DNA of 64,000 nt, taken from the NCBI GenBank assembly GCA_964407715.1, contig CAYOWP010000005.1:12780-76779 (forward strand), given 5' to 3'. A program made the position numbers and the translations under genes. The first letter of the stretch is position 1; the number at the start of each line of letters is the position of its first letter. The stretch is from an uncultured archaeon. GTDB taxonomy: Archaea > EX4484-52 > JAADEF01. This document shows, piece by piece, positions 4,806-61,609 of this stretch. Below the pieces are notes generated by a model, which saw only the letters and a list, made by a program, of their open reading frames with translations, did not search any database and was not told the origin of the DNA.

Positions 4806-4964
4806 GGCATTGTCCAATAATCTTCTATTTGTTAAGCGGAAAAGCAGCCTTTTAAAGAAGTGCATGAGAGAAAGCTAACCTTGTAGAGCCAATGCGATTA
4901 CCGCTATAAGTGCTATTTGCGCGTTAAATTTCCGCTTAACAATAAGGAATTATCGGACAATGCC
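4806..4964. mobile_element. MITE-like element 1
   Basis: TIR GGCATTGTCCAATAAT / ATTATCGGACAATGCC; near-perfect 9-bp flanking repeat AGAAATAAA/AGAGATAAA. Confidence 0.85.
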
Positions 4965-4970
4965 AGAGAT

Positions 4971-5030
4971 AAAAAGCATTTTGATGAAGCAATTAAAAAA
5001 ATTAAGGGGAGTATGAAGAATGTGAGGTAA
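4971..5030 (+). repeat. Copy D of the cdc48 3' end (KKHFDEAIKKIKGSMKNVR*)
   Basis: In-frame similarity to the cdc48 terminus. Confidence 0.8.
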
Positions 5031-5343
5031 TATTAAACAAACCCTTTAATTTTTCTTTTATTTCTTCAATTTTGGTAGAGGTTAATTTTCCTATTGTTTT
5101 ATAGATTAAACTTTTTTCAACAGTATATATAGAATGAAGATGTATAAAACTTTCTTTTTTTATTTTACCTTCTTTCAAACTACTTTGGTTAATTTTAATC
5201 TCATATTTACTTATTTGACTTTTAGAACTTATTTTACACACAATAACATCCTTCTTAGAAACATCTGCTAATATCATTACAGGTCTTAATTTATAAGATT
5301 CATATGAAGAATATATTAACTTCAAAACAACTATGTCTCCCAT
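5002..5343 (-). CDS. PemK/MazF-family toxin (likely start 5343 rather than 5397)
   Basis: GDIVV...KLRPVMIL...VIVCKISS...ESFIHLHSIYTVEK pattern; stop lies inside cdc48 copy D. Confidence 0.85.
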   Translation of the reverse strand: MGDIVVLKLIYSSYESYKLRPVMILADVSKKDVIVCKISSKSQISKYEIKINQSSLKEGKIKKESFIHLHSIYTVEKSLIYKTIGKLTSTKIEEIKEKLKGLFNITSHSSYSP

Positions 5344-5344
5344 G

Positions 5345-5512
5345 TTATATCTCAAATAGTTCCTCTGCATCTTCCCCTTCCTTATATAATCTTTCATGAG
5401 AATATCTTTTCAAAGATGACGATTCTAAAAATTCTATTTTCTCTAATACTTCTTTTATTAAATATTTTATTTCCTCTATATCCTCTTTAGTTGCATACCT
5501 TACAGAAGGCAT
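5345..5512 (-). CDS. Putative antitoxin MPSVRYATKEDIEEIKYLIKEVLEKIEFLESSSLKRYSHERLYKEGEDAEELFEI (not in the ORF track)
   Basis: Manual translation; SD-like GGTGGTGA; ends 1 nt before the toxin ATG. Confidence 0.7.
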   Translation of the reverse strand: MPSVRYATKEDIEEIKYLIKEVLEKIEFLESSSLKRYSHERLYKEGEDAEELFEI

Positions 5513-5569
5513 TATCACCACCTTATAAGAATATAATAACTTTGAACTTTAAAAATGTTGTTTGATAAT

Positions 5570-5629
5570 AAGAGACACTTTAGACGAGTAATTAAGAAGG
5601 GTAATGAGAGTATGAAGAAAAGGAAGTAA
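5570..5629 (+). repeat. Copy E of the cdc48 3' end, the most degenerate (KRHFRRVIKKGNESMKKRK*)
   Basis: Same length and position relative to the stop codon as copies C and D; HF..IKK..ES...RK*. Confidence 0.7.
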
Positions 5630-5681
5630 TTTTCTTAATATTTTAAAATCTGAAAGATTATGGTATATTTATATACCTATA

Positions 5682-5915
5682 ATGTGTGGTGATTGCATGT
5701 ATATAACCTATGACAAAGAAAACGATGTACTTTACATAAAGTACAAAGAGGGAAAAATAATGGAAAGTGAAGAAATAAGTGAAGGCATTATTGTTGATTA
5801 TGATGAAAAAGGAGAAATTATAGGAATAGAGATTTTAAACTTTAAAGAGAGAAGTGATTTTAACTTAAAAGAATTTATTTTGTCTGAGGGTAAGAACATC
5901 TCAGTGATTCTATGA
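5682..5915 (+). CDS. DUF2283 protein (putative antitoxin; likely start 5697)
   Basis: ITYDKENDVLYI...GIIVDYDEKGEIIGIEIL. Confidence 0.85.
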   Translation: MCGDCMYITYDKENDVLYIKYKEGKIMESEEISEGIIVDYDEKGEIIGIEILNFKERSDFNLKEFILSEGKNISVIL

Positions 5916-6136
5916 AAATAATATTTACTAAGCATGCTTTGGAAAGAATGAAGGAAAGAGATATAGGATTTAAGGAAGTTAAGAGTACTTTGAAAAATCC
6001 TGATAAAATTGCTAATAATAGATATATCAAGAAAATAGATTCTTATGTGTTGATTGTAGTAGTTAATGAGGAGAGTAAAGGAGTCATCAAGATTGTTACA
6101 GTATTCAAAAGTTCTAAAATAAGTAAGTATTTATAG
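5912..6136 (+). CDS. DUF4258 protein (putative RelE-fold toxin)
   Basis: IIFTKHALERMKERDI...KIVTVF; 4-nt overlap with the DUF2283 gene. Confidence 0.85.
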   Translation: MKIIFTKHALERMKERDIGFKEVKSTLKNPDKIANNRYIKKIDSYVLIVVVNEESKGVIKIVTVFKSSKISKYL

Positions 6137-6144
6137 TAAGATTT

Positions 6145-6249
6145 TTAAGAGAAGCCAGGGCTAAAGGTAAGGAAGTGGAGGAAGTCAAGAAAAAACACTT
6201 TGAAGAAGCAATTAAGAAGATTAAGGAGAGTGTGGAGAGGAGGAAGTGA
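6145..6249 (+). repeat. Copy F of the cdc48 3' end (LREARAKGKEVEEVKKKHFEEAIKKIKESVERRK*), followed by a duplicate of 2395-2460
   Basis: In-frame similarity; 6250-6313 is nearly identical to 2395-2458. Confidence 0.95.
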
Positions 6250-6394
6250 TATTAAATAATTTTATAATTTTTACCTATAAATAGGGAAATATTTTTAAAT
6301 TATTTCCCTATATATTGACAGTAAAGATAAGAGAAAAAAATTTGGAGATTATTCAGAAGTTGTGTCAAATAAAAGAACACAAAAAAGCCAATCA

Positions 6395-6467
6395 TAGCAG
6401 TTAACCCCTTGAATATGGCTATACTTTCCGTTAACCAAATTTCTCAAAATATATTATTGGGCAATAC
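6395..6467 (-). mobile_element. Truncated MITE remnant (one TIR plus one arm)
   Basis: Reverse complement matches 29496-29570 (TIR-ATATATTTTGAGAAATT-GGTTAACGG..ATAGCC.TATTCAA.GGGTTAA). Confidence 0.75.
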
Positions 6468-6553
6468 ATGGAAATGACTAATTATGTGTTAAGAAAATAT
6501 ATATTTTTGATGTAATTATAATATAATATTTATCCAAATTATGTTCAAAGCAG

Positions 6554-6808
6554 GTGATGAATGTGACAGATGAAGAAGCAAACATGGCAATGAGTAAAAG
6601 CATTACTATTACGACATTGAGTTTTTTGATAAACATACCTAGAGCAGAACTTGAAGAGAAGTTAAAGAACAACGAGTACATAGATGAGTTTGAGATAGAG
6701 GAATTGGATGATAAAGATATTAGGAAAGATGTATTTATCATTTTTAAAAATCCCGTGGATATCAGATATCTTCCAAATGTAATTAGCGAGATTCTTGGTT
6801 ATCGATAA
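6554..6808 (+). CDS. Hypothetical protein
   Basis: SD-like GGTG; directly upstream of AMP phosphorylase. Confidence 0.6.
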   Translation: MMNVTDEEANMAMSKSITITTLSFLINIPRAELEEKLKNNEYIDEFEIEELDDKDIRKDVFIIFKNPVDIRYLPNVISEILGYR

Positions 6809-6825
6809 ATTAAGGGGATGAAATA

Positions 6826-8328
6826 ATGGTATTAGAAGCAAGAGTGAAAAATATAAATTTAAATACTTTTTATGAGTGTGCCATAATCTCAAAAAGTCTT
6901 GCAAGAAAATTAAATGTGAGAGAGGGAGACAGGATAAAGGTCAGGAAGAGATTTTCTGAGAAGGTATATATTGTGGATATAGACAATGATAATGAGATTG
7001 TAAAGGATGATCAAATAGGTATACCTAAAAAGTACTCATCTTTTAAGGATAATGATGTTGTGATGTTGAGAGTCACCAATCCCCCAAAATCAAAAGAAAT
7101 AATAAAAAAGAAAATTGAGGGGTATGAACTTTCTAAGAGAGATATTAGATTGCTTATAAGTGATGTATATCATAGGAGATTGTCTAATATTGAGATAGCA
7201 TCATATCTTACAGCTGTTAAAATAAATGGAATGACAATAAAGGAGATTTATTATGTGACTCAAGAGATGTATAAATATGGAGATATCATCTCATGGCCCT
7301 GGCATTGGAAAATTGTGGACAAACATTCCATAGGAGGTATTCCTGGCAATAGAACAACGCCAATTGTAGTTAGCATAGTTGCAGCAGCAGGATTAAAAAT
7401 TCCAAAAACATCAAGCAGAAGCATTACATCACCTGCTGGTACGGCAGATACTATAGAGGTATTGGCGGATGTATGCTTCTCTATTGATGAAATAAAGAGA
7501 ATTGTTAGCAAAACTAATGGATGTATGGTATGGGGCGGGGCTTTAGATTTGGCTCCAGTTGATGATATATTTATTCAAATAGAGAAACCTTTGAATTTGG
7601 ATCCTGAAGGACAAGTAATTGCATCTATACTCTCAAAGAAGAAATCTGTAGGAAGCAAATATGTGCTTATAGACATACCTTACGGAGATGAGGCAAAGAT
7701 AGAGGAATTTAATAAAGCAAAAATTTTGGCAGATAAGTTCAAGATAGTAGGTGCATATTTGGGTATGAGAGTTGAAAGCATAATTACAAAAGGATCATCT
7801 CCTATAGGAAGCGGAGTAGGGCCTGTATTGGAGATGATAGATGTACTTAATGTACTTTATGGAAAGGGGTCTCGTGATTTAAGAGAAAAATCTTTAGAAA
7901 TGGCGGGGATATTGTTAAATATTGCAGGCAAAGGAGATTACAACACTGCAAAATACATATTAGAGAGTGGAAAAGCATTCAAAAAATTTAAGGAGATAAT
8001 AGAAGCGCAAAATGGTAGCGTTAATAAATCTCTTATAGATATGCTTGGGAGACATACTTACGAGGTCAAGGCATCTCAGGATGGGATAGTAGAGAAGATA
8101 AGCAATTCCTCTATTGCTGAGATTGCTAAAAGGGCAGGTGCTCCATCATTCAAAGGTGCTGGCGTATGGTTGTTCAAGAGAGTTGGTGATAAAGTTAAAA
8201 AAGGGGAGACATTATTTAAGATATATGCTGAAAGCGAGAGAAAATTAGATTATGCGCTTGATGTGGTGAAAGAGAACCCACCATTTTTGCTAAGCAAAAA
8301 GGATAGTTTTATTGTGATGGAGAGGTGA
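6826..8328 (+). CDS. deoA: AMP phosphorylase (thymidine phosphorylase family)
   Basis: N-terminal double-psi-barrel-like extension, DKHSIGGIPGN, KTSSRSITSPAGTAD. Confidence 0.93.
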   Translation: MVLEARVKNINLNTFYECAIISKSLARKLNVREGDRIKVRKRFSEKVYIVDIDNDNEIVKDDQIGIPKKYSSFKDNDVVMLRVTNPPKSKEIIKKKIEGYELSKRDIRLLISDVYHRRLSNIEIASYLTAVKINGMTIKEIYYVTQEMYKYGDIISWPWHWKIVDKHSIGGIPGNRTTPIVVSIVAAAGLKIPKTSSRSITSPAGTADTIEVLADVCFSIDEIKRIVSKTNGCMVWGGALDLAPVDDIFIQIEKPLNLDPEGQVIASILSKKKSVGSKYVLIDIPYGDEAKIEEFNKAKILADKFKIVGAYLGMRVESIITKGSSPIGSGVGPVLEMIDVLNVLYGKGSRDLREKSLEMAGILLNIAGKGDYNTAKYILESGKAFKKFKEIIEAQNGSVNKSLIDMLGRHTYEVKASQDGIVEKISNSSIAEIAKRAGAPSFKGAGVWLFKRVGDKVKKGETLFKIYAESERKLDYALDVVKENPPFLLSKKDSFIVMER

Positions 8329-8334
8329 TAAAAC

Positions 8335-8859
8335 ATGGAGCTATGGAAAAGCATAGAACCTCTTGCTGGGAAGGATGTTGTAAATGTAATTATTGAGATA
8401 TCAAAGGGCAGTAAAAACAAATATGAGTTGGATAAGAAAACAGGATTAATAAAGCTCGATAGAGTTTTATATAGTGCTATGCACTATCCTTTAGATTATG
8501 GTCTCATACCAAAGACATATTGTGAGGATGGGGATCCATTGGACATTTTGGTAATCTCAACGGAATCTCTTCTTCCAGGCGTATTGGTAGAGGCAAGAGT
8601 AATAGGAGCTATGAGGATGATAGACAGTGGGGAACAGGATGATAAGCTTATAGGAGTAGTGGCAGAGGATCCACGATTGAATCATATAAATGACATAGAA
8701 GATGTTGGTGAGCATACATTAAAAGAAATAAGGCATTTCTTTGAGCATTATAAGGATCTTCAGGGTAAAAAGGTTGAGGTTAAAGAATTTCTCGGCAAAC
8801 AACAGGCTTTAAAAATACTTAAGGATAGCATTTCCCTTTATAATCAAAAATTTAAATAA
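8335..8859 (+). CDS. ppa: Inorganic pyrophosphatase (family I)
   Basis: DRVLYS..HYP..YG.IP.T..EDGDPLD, DDKLI. Confidence 0.97.
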   Translation: MELWKSIEPLAGKDVVNVIIEISKGSKNKYELDKKTGLIKLDRVLYSAMHYPLDYGLIPKTYCEDGDPLDILVISTESLLPGVLVEARVIGAMRMIDSGEQDDKLIGVVAEDPRLNHINDIEDVGEHTLKEIRHFFEHYKDLQGKKVEVKEFLGKQQALKILKDSISLYNQKFK

Positions 8860-8893
8860 CTTCTTTTTAAATTTTAGATGCAAAAATTGTTCT

Positions 8894-10714
8894 ATGGAAA
8901 AGGACAAGGAGATATATGTTCCGGATACCTCAGCATTGATAAATCATGTGGTTAGCAGATTAATAGAGGAGGGAAGTATAAAGGAAGGTGTTATAATCAT
9001 ACCTAAATTTGTCCTTTCTGAGTTGGAAAATCAAGCAAATAAAGGCAGAGATATAGGATATTTGGGATTAGAGGAGATAAAGAAGCTAAAGCAATTTGAA
9101 AAAGAAGGAAAAGGCATTGAGGTTACTTTTGAGGGAAGATTGCCTACTCTTGAGGAGATCCAACTCTCAAAATCCGGTAGGATAGATTTTCTTATTAGGG
9201 AGATTGCATATGAAAAGGGAGCAACGCTGATAACCTCTGATTATGTTCAGGCAAAGGTAGCTGAAGCAATGGCTATGAACGTGATATATATTGAAAAGAA
9301 AATACCTCTCGAGAAATTGCCTTTTGAAAGATTTTTTGATGAAAACACAACATCTGTGCATTTAAAGGAAGGATGTAAACCTATGGCAAAAAAAGGAAGA
9401 CCAGGAAACATGAGATTGGTTGAGATTGGTGATGAGGTATTAACAAGAGAATATCTTGAAAAACTAATTTCTGATATCTTGGATTATGTTAGGATAGATG
9501 ATGAGAGTCATGTTGAGATAAGCAAATTTGATGCTACTGTAGTACAGCTAAGAGAATACCGCATAGCCATTACAAGACCACATTTCTCAGATGGCATAGA
9601 AGTAACCATTGTCAAACCTACAATTAAATTGACATTAGATGACTATAAATTGAAGGACAAGTTGATAGAGAGATTAAGAACAAAGGCAGAGGGCATATTA
9701 ATAGCTGGTCCTCCTGGTCATGGAAAAACAACATTTGCTCAGGCATTGGCAGAGTATTATCTCAGCTTGAACAGAGTTGTTAAGACAATGGAGCACCCAC
9801 GTGATCTAAATCTTCCAAAGGAAATAACCCAATATGCTCCGCTTGATGGAAAGATGGAGAATACAGCAGATATCCTTTTGCTTGTGAGACCTGACAATGT
9901 GATATATGATGAGGTTAGGAAAACTGCAGATTTCAAAATATTTGCGGATATGAGAATGGCAGGTATTGGGATGATAGGAGTGGTACATGCCTCGAATCCC
10001 ATAGAGGCAGTGCAGAGGTTTATAGGAAGGGTTGATCTTGGACTTATACCTCAGATTGTGGATACCGTGATATTTATCCACTCAGGTGAGATCAAGAGAG
10101 TATATACTCTCTCATTAACTGTAAGAACGCCCACAGGGATGATTGATGATGATCTCGCGCGTCCTATTATAGAGGTTAGGGATTTCGAGACAAATGAGTT
10201 GAAATATGAGATTTACACATATGGAGAGCAAACCGTTGTGATGCCAGTAGAGAATGTGCCAAATGAGAAGCAGGAATCTGCTATAGAGAATCTGGCAAAG
10301 GAGATGATATTGAAAGAGGTTAGAAAATTTGCTAAGAATCCAGAGATTTCTATCATAGATAAAAACAGGGTTGTTGTTAAAGTGGATGAGAAAGATATTG
10401 CTAAACTAATAGGCAGGAAAGGCAAAACAATTAGCAATATAGAGGAGAAGTTAGGCTTGAAGATAAATGTTGAACCCAAAACTGGCACTCTTAAAGATGA
10501 AATAGATTATGATTTAGAAGAGAAGGGAGCTTACATAGTGATATATGTGGATGATAAATTAAAATGTAAAACAGTCGATATATACAGTGATGGTGAGTAC
10601 TTGCTCTCACCAACTGTAAGTAAAAAAGGATATATAAAGATAAAGAAGAAATCTGAGCTGGGAAAGAAACTTCTCAGTGCATGGCTCAAAGGCACATTAA
10701 AACTTTATGCTTAA
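8894..10714 (+). CDS. PINA: PIN domain-VirB11-type ATPase-KH domain protein
   Basis: N-terminal PIN (VPDTS), GPPGHGKTT, KH motif LIGRKG. Confidence 0.92.
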   Translation: MEKDKEIYVPDTSALINHVVSRLIEEGSIKEGVIIIPKFVLSELENQANKGRDIGYLGLEEIKKLKQFEKEGKGIEVTFEGRLPTLEEIQLSKSGRIDFLIREIAYEKGATLITSDYVQAKVAEAMAMNVIYIEKKIPLEKLPFERFFDENTTSVHLKEGCKPMAKKGRPGNMRLVEIGDEVLTREYLEKLISDILDYVRIDDESHVEISKFDATVVQLREYRIAITRPHFSDGIEVTIVKPTIKLTLDDYKLKDKLIERLRTKAEGILIAGPPGHGKTTFAQALAEYYLSLNRVVKTMEHPRDLNLPKEITQYAPLDGKMENTADILLLVRPDNVIYDEVRKTADFKIFADMRMAGIGMIGVVHASNPIEAVQRFIGRVDLGLIPQIVDTVIFIHSGEIKRVYTLSLTVRTPTGMIDDDLARPIIEVRDFETNELKYEIYTYGEQTVVMPVENVPNEKQESAIENLAKEMILKEVRKFAKNPEISIIDKNRVVVKVDEKDIAKLIGRKGKTISNIEEKLGLKINVEPKTGTLKDEIDYDLEEKGAYIVIYVDDKLKCKTVDIYSDGEYLLSPTVSKKGYIKIKKKSELGKKLLSAWLKGTLKLYA

Positions 10715-10745
10715 TTTTAGAGTTTTTAGGTAGTTTGTAGATTTT

Positions 10746-11083
10746 GGCATTGTCCAATAATTTTTGATGAGGATTTGTTAACGAGAAAATTCGTTCTTAC
10801 AATCGCATTAGCTCTACAAAGTTTGCTGCTCTAATGGGCTTCTTTAAGAGGTTATCTTTTAACAAGGAATTATACCCAGTCAATGAGCAGCAGTAAAGCA
10901 GCTAACCTTTTGAAGAGGTTAGCATGCTACAAAACCTGTAGTAATAGCGATTTCTTCCAATTAACAAAATCATTTAAAATGGTTAACGGGAAGCATAGCC
11001 CTATTCAAAGGGTTAACTGCTCTTATGCACTTCTTTGAGAGGTACGTTTCCGCTTAACAAATAGAGAATTATTGGACAATGCT
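10746..11083. mobile_element. MITE-like element 2, long composite form with three internal modules
   Basis: TIR GGCATTGTCCAATAAT / ATTATTGGACAATGCT; no clear target duplication. Confidence 0.85.
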
Positions 11084-11138
11084 CACATCTTTGGTAATAG
11101 TCAAAATTTTTTATTTTTTGAAATACCATAATCTAAAT

Positions 11139-11558: not shown

Positions 11559-11560
11559 TG

Positions 11561-12208: not shown

Positions 12209-12210
12209 TC

Positions 12211-12642: not shown

Positions 12643-12697
12643 AAAAATATATATTCAACCTTGATACTATATATAATTTGTATAAAGGTGAGAGATT

Positions 12698-13097: not shown

Positions 13098-13709
13098 GGT
13101 TAAGAGAATGTGTAGCCTGATAAGAGGCATCTTGAAGCATCTAACCTTAAATTTCTTTAATGAGAACTGGTTAATGGAAGGGATACCTTCTCGATGAGCC
13201 ATAGGAGAGCAGCTAACCTTAAGTGGGTAGCATACTCAAAGAGCTTTGATAATAGCACCATCTTCCCGTTAACCATATTATCAAAAAATTGTTGAGGAGA
13301 GGCATGCATCTTTAAAAGAGCATGTTACAGCAGCTAATCTTTTGAGCGGTTTTGAAGCAGAGCTATCCTTTTTCAAGGCGAGTTACAATGCTGTAAAGCC
13401 TGGGAGAGGGCGATTCTTTTCGCGTTAACTAAAAAATAAAAAATGGTTAACGGGAAGGATAACCTATTCATTCAGCATATTAGAGCAGCTAACCTTTTTG
13501 AAAGGTTAGCATGCTGCAAGACCTTGGCGAAAGTGATATCTTCCCGTTAACCAAATTTTTATTAAATCTTTTATTGGTTAACGGGAGACATACCTTATCA
13601 AAACACGTATTACAGCAGCTAACCTTCGAAAGGGGTTAGTGAGCAGCTAACCTTTTGAGCGGTTAGCATGCTGCAATGTGCTTTGGAAAGCGATTCTCTC
13701 GCGTTAACC
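13098..13709 (+). repeat. Tandem array 1 of hairpin units (about 5 units, 2 partial)
   Basis: Full units at 13169-13274, 13445-13552 and 13576-13709: GGTTAACGGGA...GAGCAGCTAACC-loop-GGTTAGCATGCTG...TCCCGTTAACC. Confidence 0.92.
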
Positions 13710-13787
13710 ATGACCTTAAAAATAAATCAGGTTCATGAGAGGGAGGTTAATTATTTAAATAATTCATTTTCAATAAAATATAAACTT

Positions 13788-19695: not shown

Positions 19696-19794
19696 CTAAG
19701 TTATATAAACTTTTCATAGCGATTATGAAGCAAGTAACCTCTCAACAATGTTAACCTACTCCAAAACCTTTCGAATAGTCTAGCTTCCCATTAA

Positions 19795-20041
19795 CAAATT
19801 GTTCAATAATTTTTTGATGAGGATTTATACTCAGTCAATGAGCAGCAGTAGAGCAGCTAACCTTTTGAAGAGGTTAGCATGCCACAAAACCTGTAGTAAT
19901 AGCGATTTTTTCCGGTTAACAAAATCATTTAAAATGGTTAACGGGAAAACATAGCCCCTATTCAAAGGGTTAACTTGCTCTCATCCGCTTCTTTAAGAGG
20001 CTATTTTTCCGCTTAACAATAGAGAATTATTGGATAATGCC
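19795..20041. mobile_element. MITE-like element 3 (element 2 minus one internal unit), preceded by a degenerate arm at about 19725-19795
   Basis: Degenerate left TIR ATTGTTCAATAAT, right TIR ATTATTGGATAATGCC; near-identical to 10872-11083. Confidence 0.85.
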
Positions 20042-20553: not shown

Positions 20554-20811
20554 ATGGATGTAAAATTTCCAAGGATAGAGGACACAAGTTATTTTACAGT
20601 TAGAAAAATAAAGGATGAGAATGGAAATGAAGTTGGTAGGGTGATAATGTATAGATTGAAAGGAAAAAAGGAATTTACATTCTATATGTTATGTCCAAGA
20701 TGTAAAAAAGAAAGTGTAGGAAAAAAGGAATTCAAAAGGAGACCTTATAGAGTAGAATGTAAATATTGTGGTTATAAATACACAATAGAAAAAATAAGAC
20801 CTAAGAAATAG
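20554..20811 (+). CDS. Hypothetical zinc-ribbon protein
   Basis: CPRC...CKYC. Confidence 0.7.
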   Translation: MDVKFPRIEDTSYFTVRKIKDENGNEVGRVIMYRLKGKKEFTFYMLCPRCKKESVGKKEFKRRPYRVECKYCGYKYTIEKIRPKK

Positions 20812-20873
20812 AGAAACTCATTCTCAATGAAAATTTTATAAATTTATCCTTGCTTATATATTATAATACATAA

Positions 20874-20997
20874 GGGGCGGTAGCTCAGCCTGGGAGAGCG
20901 CCAGACTGAAGACAACTTGCAAAGAAAATATGAGAATATCTTAGCAAGGCACTTGGCAGATATCTGGTTGTCGCGGGTTCGAATCCCGCCTGCCCCA
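20874..20997 (+). tRNA. tRNA-Phe(GAA) with a 50-nt intron at 37/38 (20912-20961)
   Basis: Acceptor GGGGCGG/CTGCCCC, anticodon stem CCAGA/TCTGG, GGTTCGAATCC. Confidence 0.92.
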
Positions 20998-21063
20998 TTA
21001 TCTTCTCCTTATTATAATTTCATTTTACAGAAAGTGATAATTGCGCAAATATAAGAAAAAAGA

Positions 21064-21191
21064 AGCCCCGGGAGGGATTCGAACCCCCGACCACGTGATT
21101 TCTTGCCATTCTGAAAAGGTTACGAGTATCGCGCTTCCTTGCTTCTGAGCAAGGTTACAAGTCACGCGCTCTACCGCTGAGCTACCGGGGC
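21064..21191 (-). tRNA. tRNA-Thr(TGT) with a 56-nt intron at 37/38 (21100-21155)
   Basis: Acceptor GCCCCGG/CCGGGGC, anticodon stem CGTGA/TCACG, canonical BHB (CUUG/CAAG). Confidence 0.93.
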
Positions 21192-29436: not shown

Positions 29437-29495
29437 AAAGCATCTTAAAAATAATATGTACTTAATAAAAATATATAATTTTAACCTATTAACAG

Positions 29496-29628
29496 GTCAT
29501 TGTCCAATGATATATTTTGAGAAATTGGGTTAACGGGAAGCATAGCCCTATTCAAAAGGGTTAAACCGCTATAAGTGCTATTTGCGCGTTAAATTTCTGC
29601 TTAACAATAAGAATTATTGGACAAAGCA
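29496..29628. mobile_element. MITE-like element 4
   Basis: Degenerate TIRs GTCATTGTCCAAT / ATTGGACAAAGCA; perfect 9-bp flanking duplication TATTAACAG. Confidence 0.85.
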
Positions 29629-29700
29629 TATTAACAGAAATTTTATTGATATATTCTATCTCCCAAAAATATTTATTACAAATAGACAGATATAATCTTT

Positions 29701-31354: not shown

Positions 31355-32428
31355 GTTAACTGCTACACAACCACTCTATTGAGTTATGTTCTCCGCGACC
31401 TAAAGCAGCTGATCTCCTTGAGAGGGTTAGCTGCTTCCTACACGCATCAATGGACAGGATATGCCTCGAGGTAACCAGATTAAGAAATGGTTAACAGGAA
31501 GGAGATATATTCACCACAGGTTTTAAGGCAGCCAACCAGCTTGAGGGTTAGCTGCTTCATACATGAATCAAAAGGTCAGCTGCTCCAAGATACCTAATGG
31601 ATGGGTTACTCCTCCCATTAACCATTTTTTATAATTGGTTAACGGGAAGAAATCGGTATTAACGAGCATCTCATAGCATGCTAACCTTTTTTAAGGTTAG
31701 CTGCTCATTAACCGCTTTATTAGGTTACCTGCTATAATGCGGCTAATTGATAAAGTGTGGTTCCCGTTAACCAGATTTTTTATTTTTAATAAAAATGGTT
31801 AACGGGAGGTATCACTTTCTCAACAAACATTGCAGCATGCTAACCTTTTTTTAAGGTTAGCTGCTCATTAACTGCTTTATTAGGTTAGATGCTTTGCTAT
31901 GGTTCCTTGATAAGGTATACTTTCCGTTAACCATTTTTATTCTTTTTATTACTGGTTAACAGGAAAACTCGCTAATACAAAGACATTACAGCATAGTAAC
32001 CTCTCCTGGAGGTTAGCTGCTCTAATGTGCTATTGAGAAGGGTATACTTCCCATTAACCAGATTTTAAAAATGGTTAACTGGAAAACTCGCTAATACAAA
32101 GGTCTCGCAGCATGCTAACCTTTTTTAAGGTTAGCTGCTCTGCTATGGCTCATTGTGAAGGTATACTTCCCCTTAACCATTTTTTAATTTGGTTAACTGG
32201 AAGAAATCGCTTTACCAAAGCATATCACAGCATGGTAGCCGCATAAAAAGGTTAGCTGCTCTGATATACTTTGGAAGAGGTATGATGTCCCTTAACCAAA
32301 TTATTTTAAAAGATAAAAAATAGTTAACGGGAGAAACTCGCTAATATAAAGGCATTACGGCATACTGACCTTTATAAAGGATATCTGCTCTAATACACTG
32401 AAGGAATAGGATAACCTTCCCATTAACC
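31355..32428 (-). repeat. Tandem array 2 of hairpin units (8 units)
   Basis: Units about 31355-31476 (degenerate), 31489-31623, 31637-31772, 31797-31932, 31954-32059, 32073-32178, 32191-32297, 32322-32428, separated by 12-25 bp AT-rich linkers. Confidence 0.95.
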
Positions 32429-32585
32429 ATTTGCAGCATGCATCCTTCTGTTATAACTAAAAAATAATAAAAAATAATTATTTAAATGTTATATGTTCAT
32501 ATATTAATATATTAAGATATTAGTATATGAAAATGTTGATATAAAGATATATTTTTAAATCAAATCAAGGTGTGGAGGGATATAA

Positions 32586-35369: not shown

Positions 35370-35415
35370 AATATTTTTATTTTTTGAAATAAATAAATTA
35401 TTTTTTAATTAAAAG

Positions 35416-35596
35416 GGCATTGTCCAATAATCCCTTATTAACAAAATTTTGTTAAGCGGAAAAGTAACCTTTTAAAGAAGCGTATTAGAGCAGCAAACCT
35501 TGTAGAGCTAATGCAATTCAAATGGTTAACTGCTCTCATGCGCTTCTGTGAGAGTTTACGTTTCCGCTTAACAATAAGGAATTATTGGACAATGCC
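35416..35596. mobile_element. MITE-like element 5 (fully palindromic form)
   Basis: Perfect 16-bp TIR GGCATTGTCCAATAAT; flanked by the direct repeat TAATTAAAAG on both sides. Confidence 0.92.
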
Positions 35597-35659
35597 TAAT
35601 TAAAAGTACATGAAAGCACAAACTGTTAAGTAGGTATATTAAAGGAGATACGACTTCTT

Positions 35660-36108
35660 CGATAAGCAAGACCTTCGGAAAGGCAATTTCTTTGCGTTAA
35701 CAATTTTTTAAAATTTGGTTAATGGGCAACATAGCCTAATAAGAGGCAATTGCGGAGCAGCTAACCTTTATGAGAGGTCACTATCCTGCAATGCCTTTAT
35801 ATCGGCGAATTTCTCGCGTTAACCATTTTTATTAAAAATAAAAAAATCTGGTTAACAGGAACCACACTTTATCAATTAGCCGCATTATAGCAGCTAACCT
35901 TAAAAAAAGGTTAGCATGCTATGAGATGCTCGTTAATGACGAATCCCTCCAGTTAACCAATTATAAAAAATGGTTAACCCGAGGAGTAACTCATACATGA
36001 GGTATCTTGGAGCAGCTGACCTTTTGATGCGTGTAGGAAGCAGCTATAAGAAATATGGCTAAGGAGAAACATGACTTATCAGCGAGCAATATTGGAGCAG
36101 CTAACCTT
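35660..36108 (+). repeat. Tandem array 3 of hairpin units (about 4 units); partly an inverted copy of array 2
   Basis: Units 35717-35824, 35850-35958, 35972-about 36108; 35821-36045 matches the reverse complement of about 31545-31803. Confidence 0.9.
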
Positions 36109-43150: not shown

Positions 43151-43385
43151 GGCATTACTAAGTGCTTCTTTAAGAGGATACCTTTTAACGAGGAATTATA
43201 CCCAGTCAATGAGCAGCAGTAGAGCAGCTAACCTTTTGAAGAGGTTAGCATGCTACAAAACCTGTAGTAATAGCGATTTCTTCCAATTAACAAAATCATT
43301 TAAAATGGTTAACAGAAAACATAGCCCTATTCAAAGGGTTAACTTGCTCTCATGCGCTTCTTTAAGGGATTACCTTTCAGCTTAG
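43151..43385. mobile_element. Element 6: TIR-less or truncated copy of the element 2 type
   Basis: 43160-43370 is near-identical to about 10835-11045. Confidence 0.85.
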
Positions 43386-53058: not shown

Positions 53059-53140
53059 AAAGAATAATTAGAAAATCTTTATCTTTTAAAATGTTTCTAC
53101 TCGATCCTTTCCGAGAGAACGGCTTGATTAAATAAAAAAT

Positions 53141-53640
53141 GGTTAACGGGAAGCATACCTTCACGATGAGCCACATTAGAGCAGCTAACCCTCACGATAG
53201 CGTTTGTAAAACAGCTAACCCTTTGATGAGGTTACCATGCTGGGATGTGCTTAGTAAAGCGATTTCCTCCCGTTAACCAATCATAAAAAGAATAATAATG
53301 GTTAAAGGGAAACCTAACCAATTAATAAAGCACATCAGAGCAGCTAACCTTTCTAAGCGTTTTGGAAGCAGCTAACCTTTAAAAAAAAGGTTACCATACT
53401 GCAAACCTTTTGTATTAGCGATTTCTTCCCGTTAACCATTTTTTAAATAAAAAATTTGGTTAAGGGGAAGCATACTTTATTCATAGCACATCAGAGCAGC
53501 TAACCTTTCTAAGCGTTTGTAAAGCAGCTAACTTTTAGAAAAGGTTACCATGCCGCGAGACCTTGGTGATAGCGATAATCTCCATTTACCCAGTTAACAA
53601 AACACATAACATTCATGAGCGTTTTGCAGAAGCTAACATC
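53141..53640 (+). repeat. Tandem array 4 of hairpin units (3 long-class units plus a partial one)
   Basis: Units 53141-53278, 53300-53437 and 53458-about 53590, each with the extra GCAGCTAACC module. Confidence 0.92.
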
Positions 53641-54403: not shown

Positions 54404-54420
54404 AGATTATCCTTATATTT

Positions 54421-54843: not shown

Positions 54844-54865
54844 CTTATATCACCCTCACAATTCC

Positions 54866-55051: not shown

Positions 55052-55063
55052 AAGTATTCACCA

Positions 55064-55399: not shown

Positions 55400-55418
55400 A
55401 TTTTCCCCTTATAATGCT

Positions 55419-55859: not shown

Positions 55860-55935
55860 TCGTTTGATATATTCTCAAAAGTTTTTAATTCACATAATTT
55901 TAAAAAAGTGATAGATTTTTGATTATTCGCAATCT

Positions 55936-56361: not shown

Positions 56362-56420
56362 AAAGATAATCTAAACATGAGTTAAGTTTTAAAATATTTG
56401 ACCTCAATAAGAATATTTTT

Positions 56421-57317: not shown

Positions 57318-57322
57318 TGTGA

Positions 57323-57940
57323 ATGGTGATAGAATTAAAGCCCATAGAAGAAAATCTTGATTCGAAGGCATTGAGAGTATTTCTAAAGGCGATTGAGATT
57401 TTGGGAGGCCCAAGAAAATTGATTGAGTATAGGAACTTAACTTGGCTACCAAGTTTGATGGCAGCAAGTTATGCTATAATATATTACAAGGATAAGAATT
57501 ACTCTGCAGAGACAATCGCCAATATATTAGGCATAAGCACCACTACTGCAAAGAACATTTTAAGAGCTGATGAGACAATAGCAAAGGAAAAAATAGATGC
57601 TTTTCTCAGTAATGAGAAAATGGATGAGAATAAAAAGACACATGTTGCAGGAGCATTAGCAAAGATGGCATATAAAGAGATAATGCAGGGTAGAGATGAA
57701 ATCAATATGATGATGCATTTAGTTGGAGAAACATCAAAGTCCTTGGGGGTTGAGTGGGCAGTTAAGGTCTTGAGTATGTTAAAAGGCACTGATTTTCCTC
57801 TTGATAAAGATGCTTTTCTCAGCAAATTGAGAGGAGTGAGCATAAAAGGAAAAAGAATTGAGGAGATTGTAGAGAGCATGTCTTTTCCGATACACACTCC
57901 TGCAGAGTTGTTGCATGAGATAAAAAAAGCCATGGATTAG
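57323..57940 (+). CDS. KaiC-associated HTH regulatory protein
   Basis: LGGPRKLIEYRNLTWLPSL, HTH, H.AG..AK.AY. Confidence 0.7.
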   Translation: MVIELKPIEENLDSKALRVFLKAIEILGGPRKLIEYRNLTWLPSLMAASYAIIYYKDKNYSAETIANILGISTTTAKNILRADETIAKEKIDAFLSNEKMDENKKTHVAGALAKMAYKEIMQGRDEINMMMHLVGETSKSLGVEWAVKVLSMLKGTDFPLDKDAFLSKLRGVSIKGKRIEEIVESMSFPIHTPAELLHEIKKAMD

Positions 57941-57955
57941 ATTATGAGTAAGTGT

Positions 57956-58444
57956 TCAAGGCACAAAAACAGCAATAGCTACGGTGGTTATCCACATGCC
58001 ATTTTCATTTTTTGCTTTTTGTGTGATGTTTAATGTTTTAGCTTTTATATCTTTTTTTCCGATTTTTGTTTTTAGCATTTCTAAAGCCATTTTTTCTGCA
58101 TATTCTTCCGCGTTTATTATGGATTCGCCTTCTGAATTATATTCAAAGATATAGCCATGCATCTTATTGTCTAAAGGAATAGCGACACCAATAGAGGATG
58201 CTATTTCTTTTCCTTTTATGTTTGTTTGGTTCTTAGCCATAACGCAAAACACGATTTCTCCTGTGTTTAAGCGTTGATTTCCTTCTTCACGTGAGATAAT
58301 TTCGCAACCTGGAGGAATTATGCTTGATACTGGTACAAGGTTGTATCTCTCAATTCCTGCATCTCTTAATGCCAATTCAAATGATACTAATCTATCCTCA
58401 TGACATCCAAGACCCTTTGTAAAAAAAATTTTTGAGGGTATCAT
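57956..58444 (-). CDS. pdaD: Pyruvoyl-dependent arginine decarboxylase
   Basis: SFELALRDAGI..YNLVPVSSIIPP. Confidence 0.93.
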   Translation of the reverse strand: MIPSKIFFTKGLGCHEDRLVSFELALRDAGIERYNLVPVSSIIPPGCEIISREEGNQRLNTGEIVFCVMAKNQTNIKGKEIASSIGVAIPLDNKMHGYIFEYNSEGESIINAEEYAEKMALEMLKTKIGKKDIKAKTLNITQKAKNENGMWITTVAIAVFVP

Positions 58445-58560
58445 AAACTTGAAGGAGATTATTGAAAGGATTTTAAAAAGGTTATGTCTCCAAACTTTTA
58501 ATATCTCGATATGTGAATATAGCGTAAGATTTAAAAAGATATGAGGTTTAAAATATCCTT

Positions 58561-59157
58561 ATGGTAAGCAATTTAAAAGAGATAGAAGAGAAAGTTAAAA
58601 TTCCAAAGAACCCATATGATATAAAGATTACAAACATTGTTTTTGGTGTTGATTTGAGTGGTAGTGTGCCATTAGATAGAATAGCCAATACTTTAGAAGA
58701 TGCGGAATACGAGCCAGAATCGTTTCCTGGATTAGTGTATAGGATTGTTGATTATGGTGCTACTGCTCTTGTATTTACAAGTGGAATGTGTATTTTGTCA
58801 GGAGTAAATACAGTTGAGAAGGCATATCAGGCAGCAAAGAAGATGATAGAGGATTTTAAATCAGTAGGGGTGAAGTTTGAGAAAGAACCAAAAATGAAAA
58901 TCGTTAACTTAGTTATCTCTGCCAATATCAAGAAACCTCTTGATTTAAACAGAATCGTATATGAGCTGGGAGATTGTGAGTATGAACCAGAGCAATTTCC
59001 TGGATTAATTCATAGGATGGAAGATACAGGTGTTGTGATACTTATCTTTAATAGCGGTAGGGTTATAGTGACTGGATCAAAAGATGTAAAGAAATCTTTA
59101 AAATCTATTCAGCTCTTGGAAAAGAGATTAGAAGATATAGGAGCAATAATAAAATGA
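58561..59157 (+). CDS. tbp: TATA-box-binding protein (paralog 2)
   Basis: EYEPESFPGLVYR and EYEPEQFPGLIHR repeats. Confidence 0.94.
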   Translation: MVSNLKEIEEKVKIPKNPYDIKITNIVFGVDLSGSVPLDRIANTLEDAEYEPESFPGLVYRIVDYGATALVFTSGMCILSGVNTVEKAYQAAKKMIEDFKSVGVKFEKEPKMKIVNLVISANIKKPLDLNRIVYELGDCEYEPEQFPGLIHRMEDTGVVILIFNSGRVIVTGSKDVKKSLKSIQLLEKRLEDIGAIIK

Positions 59158-59169
59158 TTGCTACTGGTG

Positions 59170-59988
59170 TTATCCAATATATCCTGGTGGACCTTCTCCT
59201 TTCTCAGATTTTTTCTTTATTGTGGCTTTTAGTTGTTGTAGTGCTACCTTTTCCATTTCTTCAATTTTCTTTAGGATTTTTTCAACTTCTTTAACATGTT
59301 CATGAATCTTTGAGAGATCCAACTCTTTTAAGTTTAGATATTCCTTTAAAACTTCTAACACAGCCTCTGCTGCTATTGGATCTGACATAAGTAAACCAGA
59401 GGTTTCTCCCATTAGACATGTTGCTGGGATCCCAAGACGGGTTGCCTCGCTTAATATTACCCCAGCAGCTCCCACTATCTGATTAACCTTGCTGTTCTTG
59501 AATATGACATTATATCTCTCGAATTCTTTTATTTTTTCCTTATCATTTGTTGCTCCAAAAACCTTTGGTTTTCTACCTTCTATTAGCTCACCTGTCCCGA
59601 AACCTCCTATGCTTATAACCTCTTTTATGCCAAAGGTATCTATTAGAAAGTCTAATACATTAAAGGAAATATCATAATAGCCTTCTGTTGTAACAGGTTG
59701 GGCATCTCCTATCATTATAACTATATTTGGTTGTTTTTTCTTTTTATCTCCTTTTATGTAATATAGCTCATACCTAATTGGTATTATCAATCCCTCTCCT
59801 TCATGATCCACACTCACCACTGGTGGTAATGAATCAGAATATACCTCCGCAAACTTTTTAGCTTTTAAAATATACACTAAATACCCAGCTACGTTTCTAC
59901 CTACAAAACCAACACCAGGCGCTATTCCTTGGATAAACACCACATCCCTTATTTTTGGAATTTTGATATACTCTATTTCTGTTACCAT
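59170..59988 (-). CDS. Proteasome assembly chaperone (PAC2 family)
   Basis: PGVGFVG, GDAQP, SIGGFG, IVGAAG, CLMGET. Confidence 0.9.
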   Translation of the reverse strand: MVTEIEYIKIPKIRDVVFIQGIAPGVGFVGRNVAGYLVYILKAKKFAEVYSDSLPPVVSVDHEGEGLIIPIRYELYYIKGDKKKKQPNIVIMIGDAQPVTTEGYYDISFNVLDFLIDTFGIKEVISIGGFGTGELIEGRKPKVFGATNDKEKIKEFERYNVIFKNSKVNQIVGAAGVILSEATRLGIPATCLMGETSGLLMSDPIAAEAVLEVLKEYLNLKELDLSKIHEHVKEVEKILKKIEEMEKVALQQLKATIKKKSEKGEGPPGYIG

Positions 59989-60034
59989 ATTTTTCCTCCA
60001 TTTGAAACCTTCATAATAAATTATTATTTTTAGG

Positions 60035-60190
60035 TTAAATATATCCTTTTTCTTTTAATCTATATACAATATGCTTTTCGTTTATGAAAAACTTGTATGC
60101 TTTAATCTTTTTTGTTGGAATCTTGCATTTTTCACATGTTTCTTTTAAGGTATATTTTCCACATTTTTGGCACTTACGAATACATAGCAT
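60035..60190 (-). CDS. nop10: Nop10 (not in the ORF track)
   Basis: Manual translation MLCIRKCQKCGKYTLKETCEKC...; conserved eIF2a-nop10-PAC2 order. Confidence 0.85.
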   Translation of the reverse strand: MLCIRKCQKCGKYTLKETCEKCKIPTKKIKAYKFFINEKHIVYRLKEKGYI

Positions 60191-60207
60191 TTTAGAAACC
60201 TCTTATC

Positions 60208-61002
60208 TTAATTTTTTATTCTCTCAAATGAAAGGAGATAATTATATCCTTTCAACCTGTTTTCAATTTCTTCAAGAACATTTTTTAATTTTTGTTCCAT
60301 TTTTTTATAGTCTTCGCCTATCAATTCTAATCTATACCTTGGTGATGAGAGGTATGTAATCCTAATCTTATCCTTGAAATCCAACGCCTTTTTTATGATT
60401 TCTATGCCATTGTCCTCATATACTATTAGGTTTATATCTCCCTTTATCACCAATTCCTTTGGTTTAATATACTCAACCGCAAAAGAATATATTTTTTCTG
60501 CTATTCTTTTGTCTATGTTAAGAGATGTTAAAGCTTCTATTCCTTCCTCTAATGCAATCTCAAAGCCACTATACATACTTCCAAATTCTTTTTGCATTAT
60601 GAATCCTGCCTTCTCATATATCTCATCCAAGCTCATATTTAAATCCTTTGCTATCATTTTTAGAAAATTATGTGCCTTTTTCTCATTTCTATATTCTTTT
60701 ATTTTTTCTCTTGCAATTGTTGGTTTCACTCTTTTCATTGACAACTCAATATATCCTCTTTTATCTAAATTCAACACCACTGCTACAACCTTTTGACCTT
60801 CTTTTATGAATTTTCTTATATCTTTTACCCAACTTGAAGAGATTTCTGAGATGTGTATTATGGCTTTTTTATCTTCATACTCATCAAGAGTAGCTATTGC
60901 GCTACTTGGATTTATTTCCCTTATCGTTGCTATAATGTATTCTCCTATATCAGGTAAATCTTTATATTTTCTTATTCTATCGTCATTCGTTATTATAAAC
61001 AC
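60208..61002 (-). CDS. eif2a: Translation initiation factor 2 alpha subunit
   Basis: S1 domain LDEY..K..IIHISEISS.WVKDIR, LSMKRV, SPRYR. Confidence 0.95.
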   Translation of the reverse strand: MFIITNDDRIRKYKDLPDIGEYIIATIREINPSSAIATLDEYEDKKAIIHISEISSSWVKDIRKFIKEGQKVVAVVLNLDKRGYIELSMKRVKPTIAREKIKEYRNEKKAHNFLKMIAKDLNMSLDEIYEKAGFIMQKEFGSMYSGFEIALEEGIEALTSLNIDKRIAEKIYSFAVEYIKPKELVIKGDINLIVYEDNGIEIIKKALDFKDKIRITYLSSPRYRLELIGEDYKKMEQKLKNVLEEIENRLKGYNYLLSFERIKN

Positions 61003-61016
61003 CTCCTTTTATTGCA

Positions 61017-61184
61017 TTATCCTATTGGTTGAACCACTTTGACTTTTATTTTTGCTTTACCTCCTGTTGGCTCTGCCAATACCTCTCCACATACTAAGCA
61101 TCTCACAACTGTAGCTGCTTTCTCATATATATTCTGCTCATTTCCACACTTATCACATTTTACCCTTAGGAATCTACCGACCAT
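61017..61184 (-). CDS. rps27e: 30S ribosomal protein S27e (not in the ORF track)
   Basis: Manual translation [13 protein letters not shown]...[14 protein letters not shown]. Confidence 0.93.
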
Positions 61185-61274
61185 TCATTTCTCACCTTGA
61201 TTTTTAGCTTTTTATTCTCTAAAATATAATGAAGATACTAAAATTTATAAAGATTTAATGTAATTATAACTTTA

Positions 61275-61514
61275 ATGGGAAGAGATTTGTTTAAGGCTCA
61301 AGCAAGCGCAATTAATATTGTGGTTGCGATAATTGTTTTGGTAATTGTTGCATTGGCATTAATTGTGGTCTCTACCTCAAGTGTATCAGATTTGGGAGAG
61401 AAAGCCAAACATGTGATGGGTAAAATATTTGGTAGTAAAAACGCTAAGTCAAAGGAGAAGGGAGCTATAGATCAAATACTTGAGAAAATTACTGTGGAAG
61501 AATCATTTGGTTAA
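61275..61514 (+). CDS. Small pilin-like protein (class III signal peptide); stop codon supplied by element 7
   Basis: KAQ/ASAINIVVAIIVLVIVAL; TAA lies inside the element's GGTTAAC. Confidence 0.65.
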   Translation: MGRDLFKAQASAINIVVAIIVLVIVALALIVVSTSSVSDLGEKAKHVMGKIFGSKNAKSKEKGAIDQILEKITVEESFG

Positions 61515-61609
61515 CGGGAAGCATAGCCATACTCAAAGGGTTAAACCGCTACAAGTGCTGTTTGCGTGTTAAGTTTCCGCTTAACAATAAAGAATTATCG
61601 GACAATGCC
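61501..61609. mobile_element. Element 7: left-truncated MITE
   Basis: Right TIR ATTATCGGACAATGCC; body matches element 4. Confidence 0.85.

Follow-up and report, generated by a model that had tools for sequence, protein, structure and literature searches.

A new family of MITEs with IS903-like ends and hairpin-repeat interiors in a hydrothermal-vent archaeon

Eight loci spread along a 64,000-nt stretch of an archaeal genome (the whole stretch analysed, referred to here as the window) raise the question of whether they are the traces of a mobile element and, if so, what moved it and how it is related to the TIR-less arrays of hairpin repeats that share its sequence. An earlier note on this DNA had taken the loci for a MITE family with TIRs and 9–10-bp target duplications. 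This has been borne out by an excess of TIRs and by 9-bp duplications at frequencies above those of controls, and the TIR-bearing loci are confirmed as copies of a MITE, a non-autonomous DNA transposon, or as its decayed remnants, in a hydrothermal-vent archaeon. All eight loci are intergenic, lying between ORFs (position was checked for these eight only), and all hold sequence of the family, but they are not equivalent: both TIRs are present in four, only one end in three, and no TIR in the remaining one. In window coordinates, with no strand assigned, they are:

4806–4964, complete MITE of 159 bp, TIRs with 0 and 1 mismatches
6395–6467, one-ended remnant, the right end of a ~135-bp subfamily; right TIR degenerate (3 mismatches), left TIR absent
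10746–11083, complete MITE of 338 bp, TIRs with 0 and 1 mismatches
19795–20041, one-ended copy, right TIR intact (1 mismatch)
29496–29628, complete MITE of 133 bp, TIRs with 2 and 2 mismatches
35416–35596, complete MITE of 181 bp, both TIRs perfect
43151–43385, TIR-less interior fragment of a ~340-bp subfamily, homologous to 10828–11060; left end reduced to GGCATT
61501–61609, one-ended copy beginning with a hairpin-unit arm (GGTTAACGGGAAG) and ending in a right TIR (1 mismatch)

The duplications originally quoted for three of the complete copies are correct. The element at 35416–35596 is flanked by an exact 10-bp duplication, TAATTAAAAG (35406–35415 and 35597–35606), that at 29496–29628 by an exact 9-bp duplication, TATTAACAG (29487–29495 and 29629–29637), and the 9-mers on either side of 4806–4964, AGAAATAAA (4797–4805) and AGAGATAAA (4965–4973), are identical at 8/9 positions. 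The fourth complete element, at 10746–11083, has no recognizable flanking duplication and contains a whole short hairpin unit at element positions 114–220. The remnant at 6395–6467 resembles, when compared by eye, the right end of a copy on contig C7 (55282–55416). At 19795–20041 the left TIR is missing its initial bases (AAATTGTTCAATAAT) and lies directly against a hairpin unit (19713–19794).

Allowing up to three mismatches, the 16-mer TIR, GGCATTGTCCAATAAT, occurs 15 times in the window compared with 1.15 expected, and none of 100 shuffles reaches 15. A search of the whole 0.9-Mb genome, as the earlier note had proposed, returned 113 matches at no more than two mismatches and 40 clean pairs. 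The ends are 16–18 bp long, with the sequence GGCATTGTCCAATAAT(T/C)C, and they bound ~46 elements of 47–390 bp, all non-coding, to which solo ends are to be added. Six further copies have a degenerate TIR, and identity among the MITE copies is ~85%.

Of the 40 clean pairs, 19 are flanked by a 9-bp duplication that is exact (eight) or has one mismatch (eleven), compared with 0.2% in offset-flank controls. Nine base pairs is the modal length, with no match at the tenth base; a few duplications are of 8 or 10 bp. Exact 9-bp duplications are also found at three of the six copies with a degenerate TIR and at a 47-bp remnant on contig C7 (7259–7305). The other 21 pairs are without a clean 9-bp duplication, which may be due to their age or to recombination among copies. 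The elements thus show what is looked for in a MITE, namely TIRs of at least 10–15 bp, duplications of fixed length and variable sequence, and a small, non-coding, multi-copy form.

Past transposition is also recorded within the family itself. A copy on contig C13 (20753–21054) is nested in the TIR of another copy; its excision together with one GCATTGTCT restores GGCATTGTCTAATAAT, the TIR of the second element. The ~250-bp subfamily has 18 copies with an internal TIR that lacks the terminal GCC in 14 of them, and its members are fused dimers in which the internal TIR is dead. On contig C7 (54162–55078) a composite reads MITE, AACATCAAA, antitoxin plus ParE, AACATCAAA, MITE, with the two MITE copies in direct orientation and TCAGTTCT on both outer sides as an 8-bp repeat. 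A second composite, on contig C15 (14144–15152), has the same inner junctions. Pairs of MITEs bracketing a ParE toxin–antitoxin cassette at two loci, one of them with an outer duplication, are new here. MITE-bracketed units carrying resistance genes are found in Acinetobacter and Enterobacter cloacae (cited in PMC11602168), and there too two copies can enclose a gene cassette and mobilize it; in the present case the cargo is a ParE-type toxin–antitoxin pair and the host a 0.9-Mb archaeon. MITE pairs can also move intervening DNA, as the ParE cassette shows.

The interiors come from elsewhere in the same genome. A second and more abundant hairpin repeat is present as 184 units in tandem arrays, the unit ends being GGTTAACGGGAAG ... 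CTTCCCGTTAACC. Arrays in the window, again with no strand assigned, include:

13169–13726, TIR-less tandem array of hairpin units, of the same family as the source of the MITE interiors
31546–32431, largest hairpin-unit array of the window, ~7 units of 106–136 nt
35683–35959, two-unit hairpin array lying 87 bp downstream of the 35416–35596 MITE
53124–53581, array of long (138-nt) hairpin units

Beyond the first ~23 nt (TIR plus linker), the MITE interiors correspond to half an array unit or to whole units, at 75–85% identity. The proposal that MITEs and TIR-less arrays are one family therefore stands as far as shared arms and interiors are concerned, but it does not extend to mechanism: array units have no 6–9-bp flanking duplications, and so TIR-dependent transposition did not lay the arrays down. 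A structured RNA gene was also considered for the hairpin units and is disfavoured by the absence of covariation (80.9% of cells are paired compared with 81.1% in shuffles, and cells changed on both sides of the hairpin number 33 compared with 45.8 expected) and of any Rfam family at the MITE or array loci, the Rfam matches in the window being tRNAs only. The repeats occupy ~5.9% of the genome and are the reason why the contigs of the bin break, seven contig ends falling in hairpin arrays.

The origin of the ends is best approached through the duplication. IS903 generates a 9-bp target duplication, and IS903B, as read in an E. coli record, has a length of 1057 bp and the IRL GGCTTTGTTGAATAAATC, to which the MITE TIR is identical at 14/18 positions, IS903 having been picked after the fact among many IS families. 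Both have an 18-bp terminal repeat beginning GGC, as well as simple insertions and cointegrate or composite structures, in common with the MITE. The differences are that IS903, at 1057 bp, has its own transposase, whereas the MITE is of 47–390 bp, non-coding, archaeal and unrelated in its interior to any IS. TIR similarity by itself does not decide the family, because the TIR also fits the IS6 motif and the GGnnnTG consensus of IS1; most of the weight falls on the 9-bp duplication. Judging by the TIR, the length of the duplication and the existence of such IS in related genomes, the ends appear to derive from the IS903 group of the IS5 family, whose transposases are of the DDE_Tnp_1 type.

Two such elements occur in archaea of the same order. 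One (L108, in archaeon G010) is 942 bp long, has the ends GGCTCTGTAGAAA and is flanked by an exact 9-bp duplication, GAAAAAATA; its transposase, like that of IS903B, passes NCBIfam NF033579. The other (L109, in archaeon G011) is 1097 bp long with ends GGCGCTGTTGCACAA, a duplication matching at 8/9 positions and a frame similar to the IS903B transposase by tblastn. They share GGC ends, a TGT core and 9-bp duplications with the MITE, but their repeats match its TIR at only 9–10/18 positions; they belong to other families of the order and neither is present in the genome studied. They are plausibly the nearest kind of driver in the lineage.

The search for a transposase flanked by the TIR, which the earlier note had proposed, found none. 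In the MITE's own genome, from a bin that is 92% complete, there is no match to PF01609 (IS4/IS5 DDE) and none to PF03400, PF12762 or PF13610, and tblastn with the IS903B transposase returned nothing. No autonomous copy is present in the assembly, where TIR pairs 400–12,000 bp apart yield the toxin–antitoxin composite only. There is no autonomous partner with the same TIRs among 60 relatives, and in exact-pattern scans of metagenome and viral collections the matches were either to the contigs from which the bin was built or due to chance. Since the copies are ~85% identical and the assembly has no transposase, the family may be inactive now or may be driven by an element missing from the bin. 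No empty allele was seen in five public runs (X1–X5), where contigs break at the repeats and visible junctions share the insertion, that at 29496–29628 being present in X3 and that at 35416–35596 in X2 and X3. The same-genus genome, with genes 64–78% identical, is too distant for intergenic sites to be aligned. A lack of both empty alleles and cognate transposase is part of what had been said to count against the family; past transposition is nonetheless evident from the duplications, from the nested insertion and from the composite. Neither the MITE nor the hairpin family occurs in the same-genus genome or in 59 other relatives, and both are confined to the one species.

The ISPna2 group of IS1595 and the IS6 family had earlier been named as an imperfect fit to the ends. 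Both produce 8-bp duplications, compared with 9 bp here, and a GGC end with 9 bp fits the IS903 group instead. Derivation of the MITE from IS1 or from the ISPna2 group of IS1595 is very unlikely. The tip GGCATTG does fit the consensus ends of the ISfinder classification for both ISPna2 (GGCnnTG) and IS1 (GGnnnTG); IS1 also makes duplications of 8–9 bp and direct-repeat composites such as Tn9, both compatible with the family, and its DDE domain exists in archaea, a control search having matched Methanosarcina. However, neither PF03400, for the IS1 transposase (DDE_Tnp_IS1), nor PF12762, for that of IS1595 (DDE_Tnp_IS1595), has a match in the genome, and beyond its first seven bases the TIR appears far closer to IS903 (14/18) than to the IS1 repeat, with which it would share about 7/18 positions. 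The ISPna2 group, whose ends fit, is disfavoured by the 9-bp duplication and the absence of PF12762. Mobilization by an IS6-family (IS26-like) transposase, with a replicative cointegrate resolved by the host between direct copies to leave simple insertions, is distinctly unlikely, despite a partial fit of the TIR (GG tips, TTGTC core and CAAT) to the IS6 consensus GG ... cTGTt ... caaa (PMC7986276) and the fact that IS6 elements are common in archaea (PMC7986276). The composite, with its direct MITE copies, repeated inner 9-mer and outer 8-bp repeat, has the repeat pattern of IS6 cointegrates, but IS903 too forms cointegrates (PMC7986276), so it does not discriminate. IS6 is disfavoured by the modal 9-bp duplication, seen in eight exact and eleven near-exact cases with the tenth base unmatched, and by the absence from the genome of PF13610, the model for its DDE_Tnp_IS240 transposase.

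Alternatively, the TIR-capped elements and the arrays might be two states of a host-maintained palindromic system of the REP/BIME type, serving protein binding, termination or mRNA stabilization, with the TIR a mere conserved module. Interiors and arrays are indeed homologous, the repeats make up the ~5.9% of the 0.9-Mb genome given above, they lie only between genes in the window, and two hairpin boxes, GGTTAAC and GGTTAGCTGC, are conserved while the remainder drifts. REP/BIME, ERIC, Correia and Rickettsia palindromic elements resemble the TIR-less arrays only, in being intergenic imperfect palindromes of ~100–140 nt that stand in arrays with alternating arms and are abundant in a small genome. 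The arrays are unlike all of these in having no TA or other duplication and in being limited to one species. The proposal is highly improbable, as fixed 9-bp duplications of variable sequence flank the TIR-capped form only, transposition has left its mark in the nested insertion and in the composite, covariation is lacking, and the absence of both families from the 60 relatives gives no sign of a conserved host function. Somewhat less remote, although still unlikely, is a two-part scheme in which the hairpin repeat spreads inside IS903-type MITEs whose TIRs then decay or recombine away, local amplification giving the arrays, and in which the MITE–ParE/antitoxin–MITE unit, with its identical inner 9-mers, is a replicative cointegrate of the chromosome and a small circular toxin–antitoxin cassette. 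If the cointegrate reading were true, MITEs would be an entry route for circular gene cassettes into a reduced genome.

We regard as probable a MITE with IS903-group ends that is mobilized in trans, is chimeric with the resident hairpin repeat and has amplified as whole-unit subfamilies. The 16–18-bp ends would be where a DDE transposase of the IS903 group, IS5 family, presumably supplied in trans, binds and cuts. The target would be cut with a 9-bp stagger, repair of which would give the 9-bp duplication. The chimera would have arisen when IS903-type ends came to cap half, whole or several units of the abundant palindromic hairpin repeat, and the resulting subfamilies would then have been amplified as whole units.

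This is a new MITE family within a familiar class of selfish DNA, and no new mechanism is revealed by it. As in type II prokaryotic MITEs, likeness to an IS is limited to the TIRs, the interior is unrelated, the distribution is taxon-specific and there are flanking duplications; unlike known type II MITEs, the interior is drawn from a second resident repeat family. What it offers is a chimeric MITE, apparently IS903-type ends grafted onto a resident palindromic repeat, that has multiplied in a burst restricted to one species, a hydrothermal-vent archaeon with a 0.9-Mb genome. The toxin–antitoxin cassette carried by a MITE pair is direct evidence, of a kind rare for such reduced archaea, that genes are moved by transposons. 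The TIR together with the 9-bp duplication gives a sequence handle for locating the driving IS in long-read data. The density of elements had been thought unexpected for a DPANN-type genome, a view that does not agree with a census of archaeal MITEs in which DPANN genomes lead with 105–146 per Mb (PMC11602168).

The MITE family, made up of short non-coding elements bounded by a TIR, is real, well defined and specific to this species. Within the window, allowing up to three mismatches, the TIR GGCATTGTCCAATAAT is matched 15 times where 1.15 are expected, and reading each of the eight loci that the earlier note had put forward confirms the family sequence at all of them. All eight are situated between ORFs, and they are as follows:

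4806-4964, complete MITE
6395-6467, one-ended copy
10746-11083, complete MITE
19795-20041, one-ended copy
29496-29628, complete MITE
35416-35596, complete MITE
43151-43385, TIR-less interior fragment
61501-61609, one-ended copy

The whole genome (a bin of 898,521 bp in 16 contigs, G+C 32%, completeness 92%, contamination 0.26%) holds 113 TIR matches at up to two mismatches, 54 of them exact, and 40 clean left-right TIR pairs spanning 89-390 bp. The TIR is somewhat better preserved than the interior, a comparison biased by the copies having been found via the TIR. In six more copies one TIR is degenerate; an exact 9-bp duplication flanks three of these and also a separate 47-bp remnant.

Direct repeats of 9 bp abut both ends exactly in 8 of the 40 pairs and with one mismatch in 11. 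When left flanks were compared with offset right flanks as a control, agreement to within one mismatch arose in 0.2% of cases. In a few copies the duplication is of 10 bp (window 35416-35596) or of 8 bp. The duplicated sequence varies between copies, as target duplications normally do. A paralogous ‘empty site’ case exists as well: the copy at 20753-21054 of bin contig C13 is flanked by GCATTGTCT, and excising it together with one copy of the repeat regenerates GGCATTGTCTAATAAT, the left TIR of a second element.

Elements start with ~23 nt, GGCATTGTCCAATAATTCTTTAT, and continue into sequence 75-85% identical to a second, TIR-less repeat family of the same genome. This family consists of rod-like hairpin units (n = 184) with ends GGTTAACGGGAAG ... 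CTTCCCGTTAACC and core AGCAGCTAACC ... GGTTAGCATGCT, in two sharp size classes of ~100-119 nt (mostly 106-109) and 134-138 nt. The units are mostly in tandem, separated by A/T-rich spacers that are mostly of 20-23 nt. Spacers of this length (e.g. window 31546-32431) are near-palindromic, so the right arm of a unit could instead pair with the left arm of the unit that follows, in an alternative hairpin. Some MITE interiors contain half units in inverted order and others contain whole units, as in the following:

10746-11083 of the window, whole-unit MITE
19777-19972 of bin contig C7, whole-unit MITE with a 136-nt unit between two TIRs

The subfamily with the most copies (18 of ~250 bp, mean identity 85%, maximum 94%) is a fused dimer; in 14 of the 18, a right TIR without its terminal GCC lies inside the element, fused to TTGTTAAC. 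This internal TIR is evidently unused, suggesting that the terminal GGC is essential. Repeats with five or more self-hits make up 5.9% of the genome.

The MITEs and the tandem arrays had been proposed to be one family. This holds for the shared sequence ancestry of the interiors and the arrays but not for the mechanism: a TIR-dependent process did not lay down the arrays, as no duplications of 6-9 bp were found around the 184 hairpin units. The same 4-mer is present on both flanks of 21 of the 184, against at most seven at offset positions, a weak signal that probably comes from the semi-conserved A/T arms. Possible conservation of the hairpin as RNA was assessed in 70 aligned short units, on which a hand-written 30-pair hairpin was imposed and the pairs counted against shuffling of partners among the sequences. 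No covariation was found in this set. Paired cells amount to 80.9% versus 81.1% after shuffling, and double changes are fewer (33 versus 45.8); the pairing therefore stems from the near-palindromic consensus of each arm, without compensation. RNAalifold returned no consensus structure for the hairpin units.

On the best reading, the MITE has ends of IS903-group (IS5) type on either side of a palindromic repeat resident in the genome, and the transposase that would drive it is absent from the assembly. Members of the IS903 group make 9-bp duplications. An ‘IS5-like element IS903B’ on an E. coli chromosome in the public record (1057 bp, IRL GGCTTTGTTGAATAAATC, IRR GGCTTTGTTAAATAAATC) encodes a transposase scoring 357 bits against NCBIfam NF033579, and the MITE end GGCATTGTCCAATAATTC is identical to its IRL at 14 of 18 positions; the E. 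coli copy examined has no duplication. The earlier note had named IS1595 (its ISPna2 group) and IS6 as imperfect fits. The IS6 elements have 8-bp duplications and a repeat motif GG ... cTGTt ... caaa (PMC7986276), which the MITE TIR partly fits too, so the length of the duplication becomes the main discriminator. The modal 9-bp duplication and the absence of PF12762 (IS1595) and PF13610 (IS6) from the assembly speak against both of these origins. PF01609 (IS4/IS5), PF03400 (IS1) and PF00665 (rve) likewise have no match in the assembly, and tblastn with the IS903B transposase against the genome found nothing; the cognate transposase that the earlier note had suggested seeking was thus not found with these five DDE profiles or with this query.

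PF01609 transposases do occur in 26 of 60 relatives’ genomes. A search for inverted repeats around all 12 of the relatives’ transposase loci gave clean IS boundaries at three, all in archaea of the same order. These are complete IS of the IS903 group (NF033579), 936-1097 bp long, with GGC ends and 8-9-bp duplications. The first (L108, in genome G010) measures 942 bp, has GGCTCTGTAGAAA at its ends and is flanked by an exact duplication of 9 bp, GAAAAAATA; the transposase that it encodes scores 165 bits against NF033579 (cut-off 140). The second (L109, in G011) is 1097 bp long and has GGCGCTGTTGCACAA at its ends, the two copies of its duplication agreeing at 8 of 9 positions, and the third (L116, in G016) has L108-type ends and an 8-bp duplication. 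L108 and L109 indicate that elements of IS903 type, with GGC at their ends and footprints of 9 bp, are in circulation within this order of archaea. A TGA interrupts the transposase frame in L109 and L116.

Both the MITE and the hairpin family are expansions of this species only. At up to one mismatch, the TIR has 91 matches in its own genome, none in the same-genus genome G001 and 0-1 in each of 59 other relatives; the hairpin arm has 265 matches in its own genome, 0-1 in the genus and family and a background level elsewhere. Searched in public genome contigs, the bare 16-mer TIR gave nothing but single chance matches in unrelated bacteria, and a search of a viral collection gave chance matches in coding sequences only. 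With a 25-mer, a metagenome search recovered only the metagenome from which the bin derives, which matches the MAG contigs at 100% identity. The density of the elements had been thought unexpected for a reduced genome. In a census covering 183,232 genomes, MITEs were present in 20% of those from archaea, and DPANN genomes had the highest density, 105-146 per Mb (PMC11602168); a high density is therefore no surprise here. The DPANN label is compatible with the size of the bin and with the 0.5-2.2 Mb of its relatives.

The contigs of G001 are small and its coding DNA is only 64-78% identical, which makes orthologous empty sites unreadable at the base level. Empty alleles, whose search had also been proposed, were sought at three loci in contigs from five public sequencing runs (X1-X5); these contigs break at repeats, and no joint skipping an element was found. 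Where a junction is visible, the insertions are common to X2 and X3. A skip of 1068 bases in X4 connects two tRNA genes of other organisms. With copies ~85% identical and the transposase not found, the MITE burst may be old.

The sole relevant joint in the public runs is the second allele of a toxin-antitoxin composite that lies outside the window. At C7 54162-55078 (L121:1379-2295), two MITE copies in direct orientation (251 and 154 bp) enclose a 512-bp segment that encodes an antitoxin-like protein of 63 aa and a ParE-family toxin of 85 aa (PF05016, E = 3e-12). The 9-mer AACATCAAA, which overlaps the toxin stop codon, is found at both inner MITE ends; each outer end adjoins TCAGTTCT, a repeat that is exact over 8 bp and extends to 9 bp if one mismatch is allowed. 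Across the whole genome, no other TIR pair with a spacing of 400-12,000 bp has such an outer repeat, and no further long composite with outer duplications was found. A second copy, at C15 14144-15152 (locus L118), has no outer repeat; it has the same inner junctions, and the unusual TIR variant GGCGTTGTCC lies beside the toxin in both. The two cassettes are 93-96% identical at their ends and 72% in the middle, their MITEs 85-86%, and contigs of X1 and X2 contain both alleles. Two composite copies with shared junctions argue that the unit moved as a whole, either as a composite transposon via its outer TIRs or through a cointegrate formed by the chromosome with a small circular cassette carrying one MITE. 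The cointegrate would also explain the identical inner 9-mers, and IS903, IS1 and IS6 are reported to use both pathways (PMC7986276). A short distance downstream of the MITE at 4806-4964, window 5423-5563 resembles the cassette promoter and antitoxin start, with 85% identity over 90 nt and 52% over 31 aa.

Hydrothermal-vent metagenome runs contain DNA near-identical to the bin, and the JGI metagenome Ga0190367 has the same contigs at 100% identity. The window occupies 12780-76779 of bin contig C5. One contig of that metagenome (Ga0190367_1000439; L118) runs from the end of C15 (11819-17460) into the start of C5 (1-6641), the two overlapping by 23 bases, which makes C15 and the window’s contig chromosomal neighbours. 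Hairpin arrays lie at seven contig ends; no outward-facing TIR was found at any contig end of the assembly. At least one self-hit covers 19% of the genome. Identical sequence occurs at several contig termini (the starts of C2 and C16, the starts of C10 and C12, the ends of C4 and C16), and the start of C3 repeats the C8 start and the C13 end in reverse complement. Such repeated ends reflect either genuine gene duplicates where the assembly breaks or contigs from variant strains within the bin. An Rfam search of the window returned three tRNAs and nothing else. The one-ended MITE at 19795-20041 is followed, 830 bp downstream, by two of the tRNA genes in back-to-back arrangement, both big enough for introns:

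20874-20997, plus strand, tRNA gene of 124 nt
21064-21191, minus strand, tRNA gene of 128 nt
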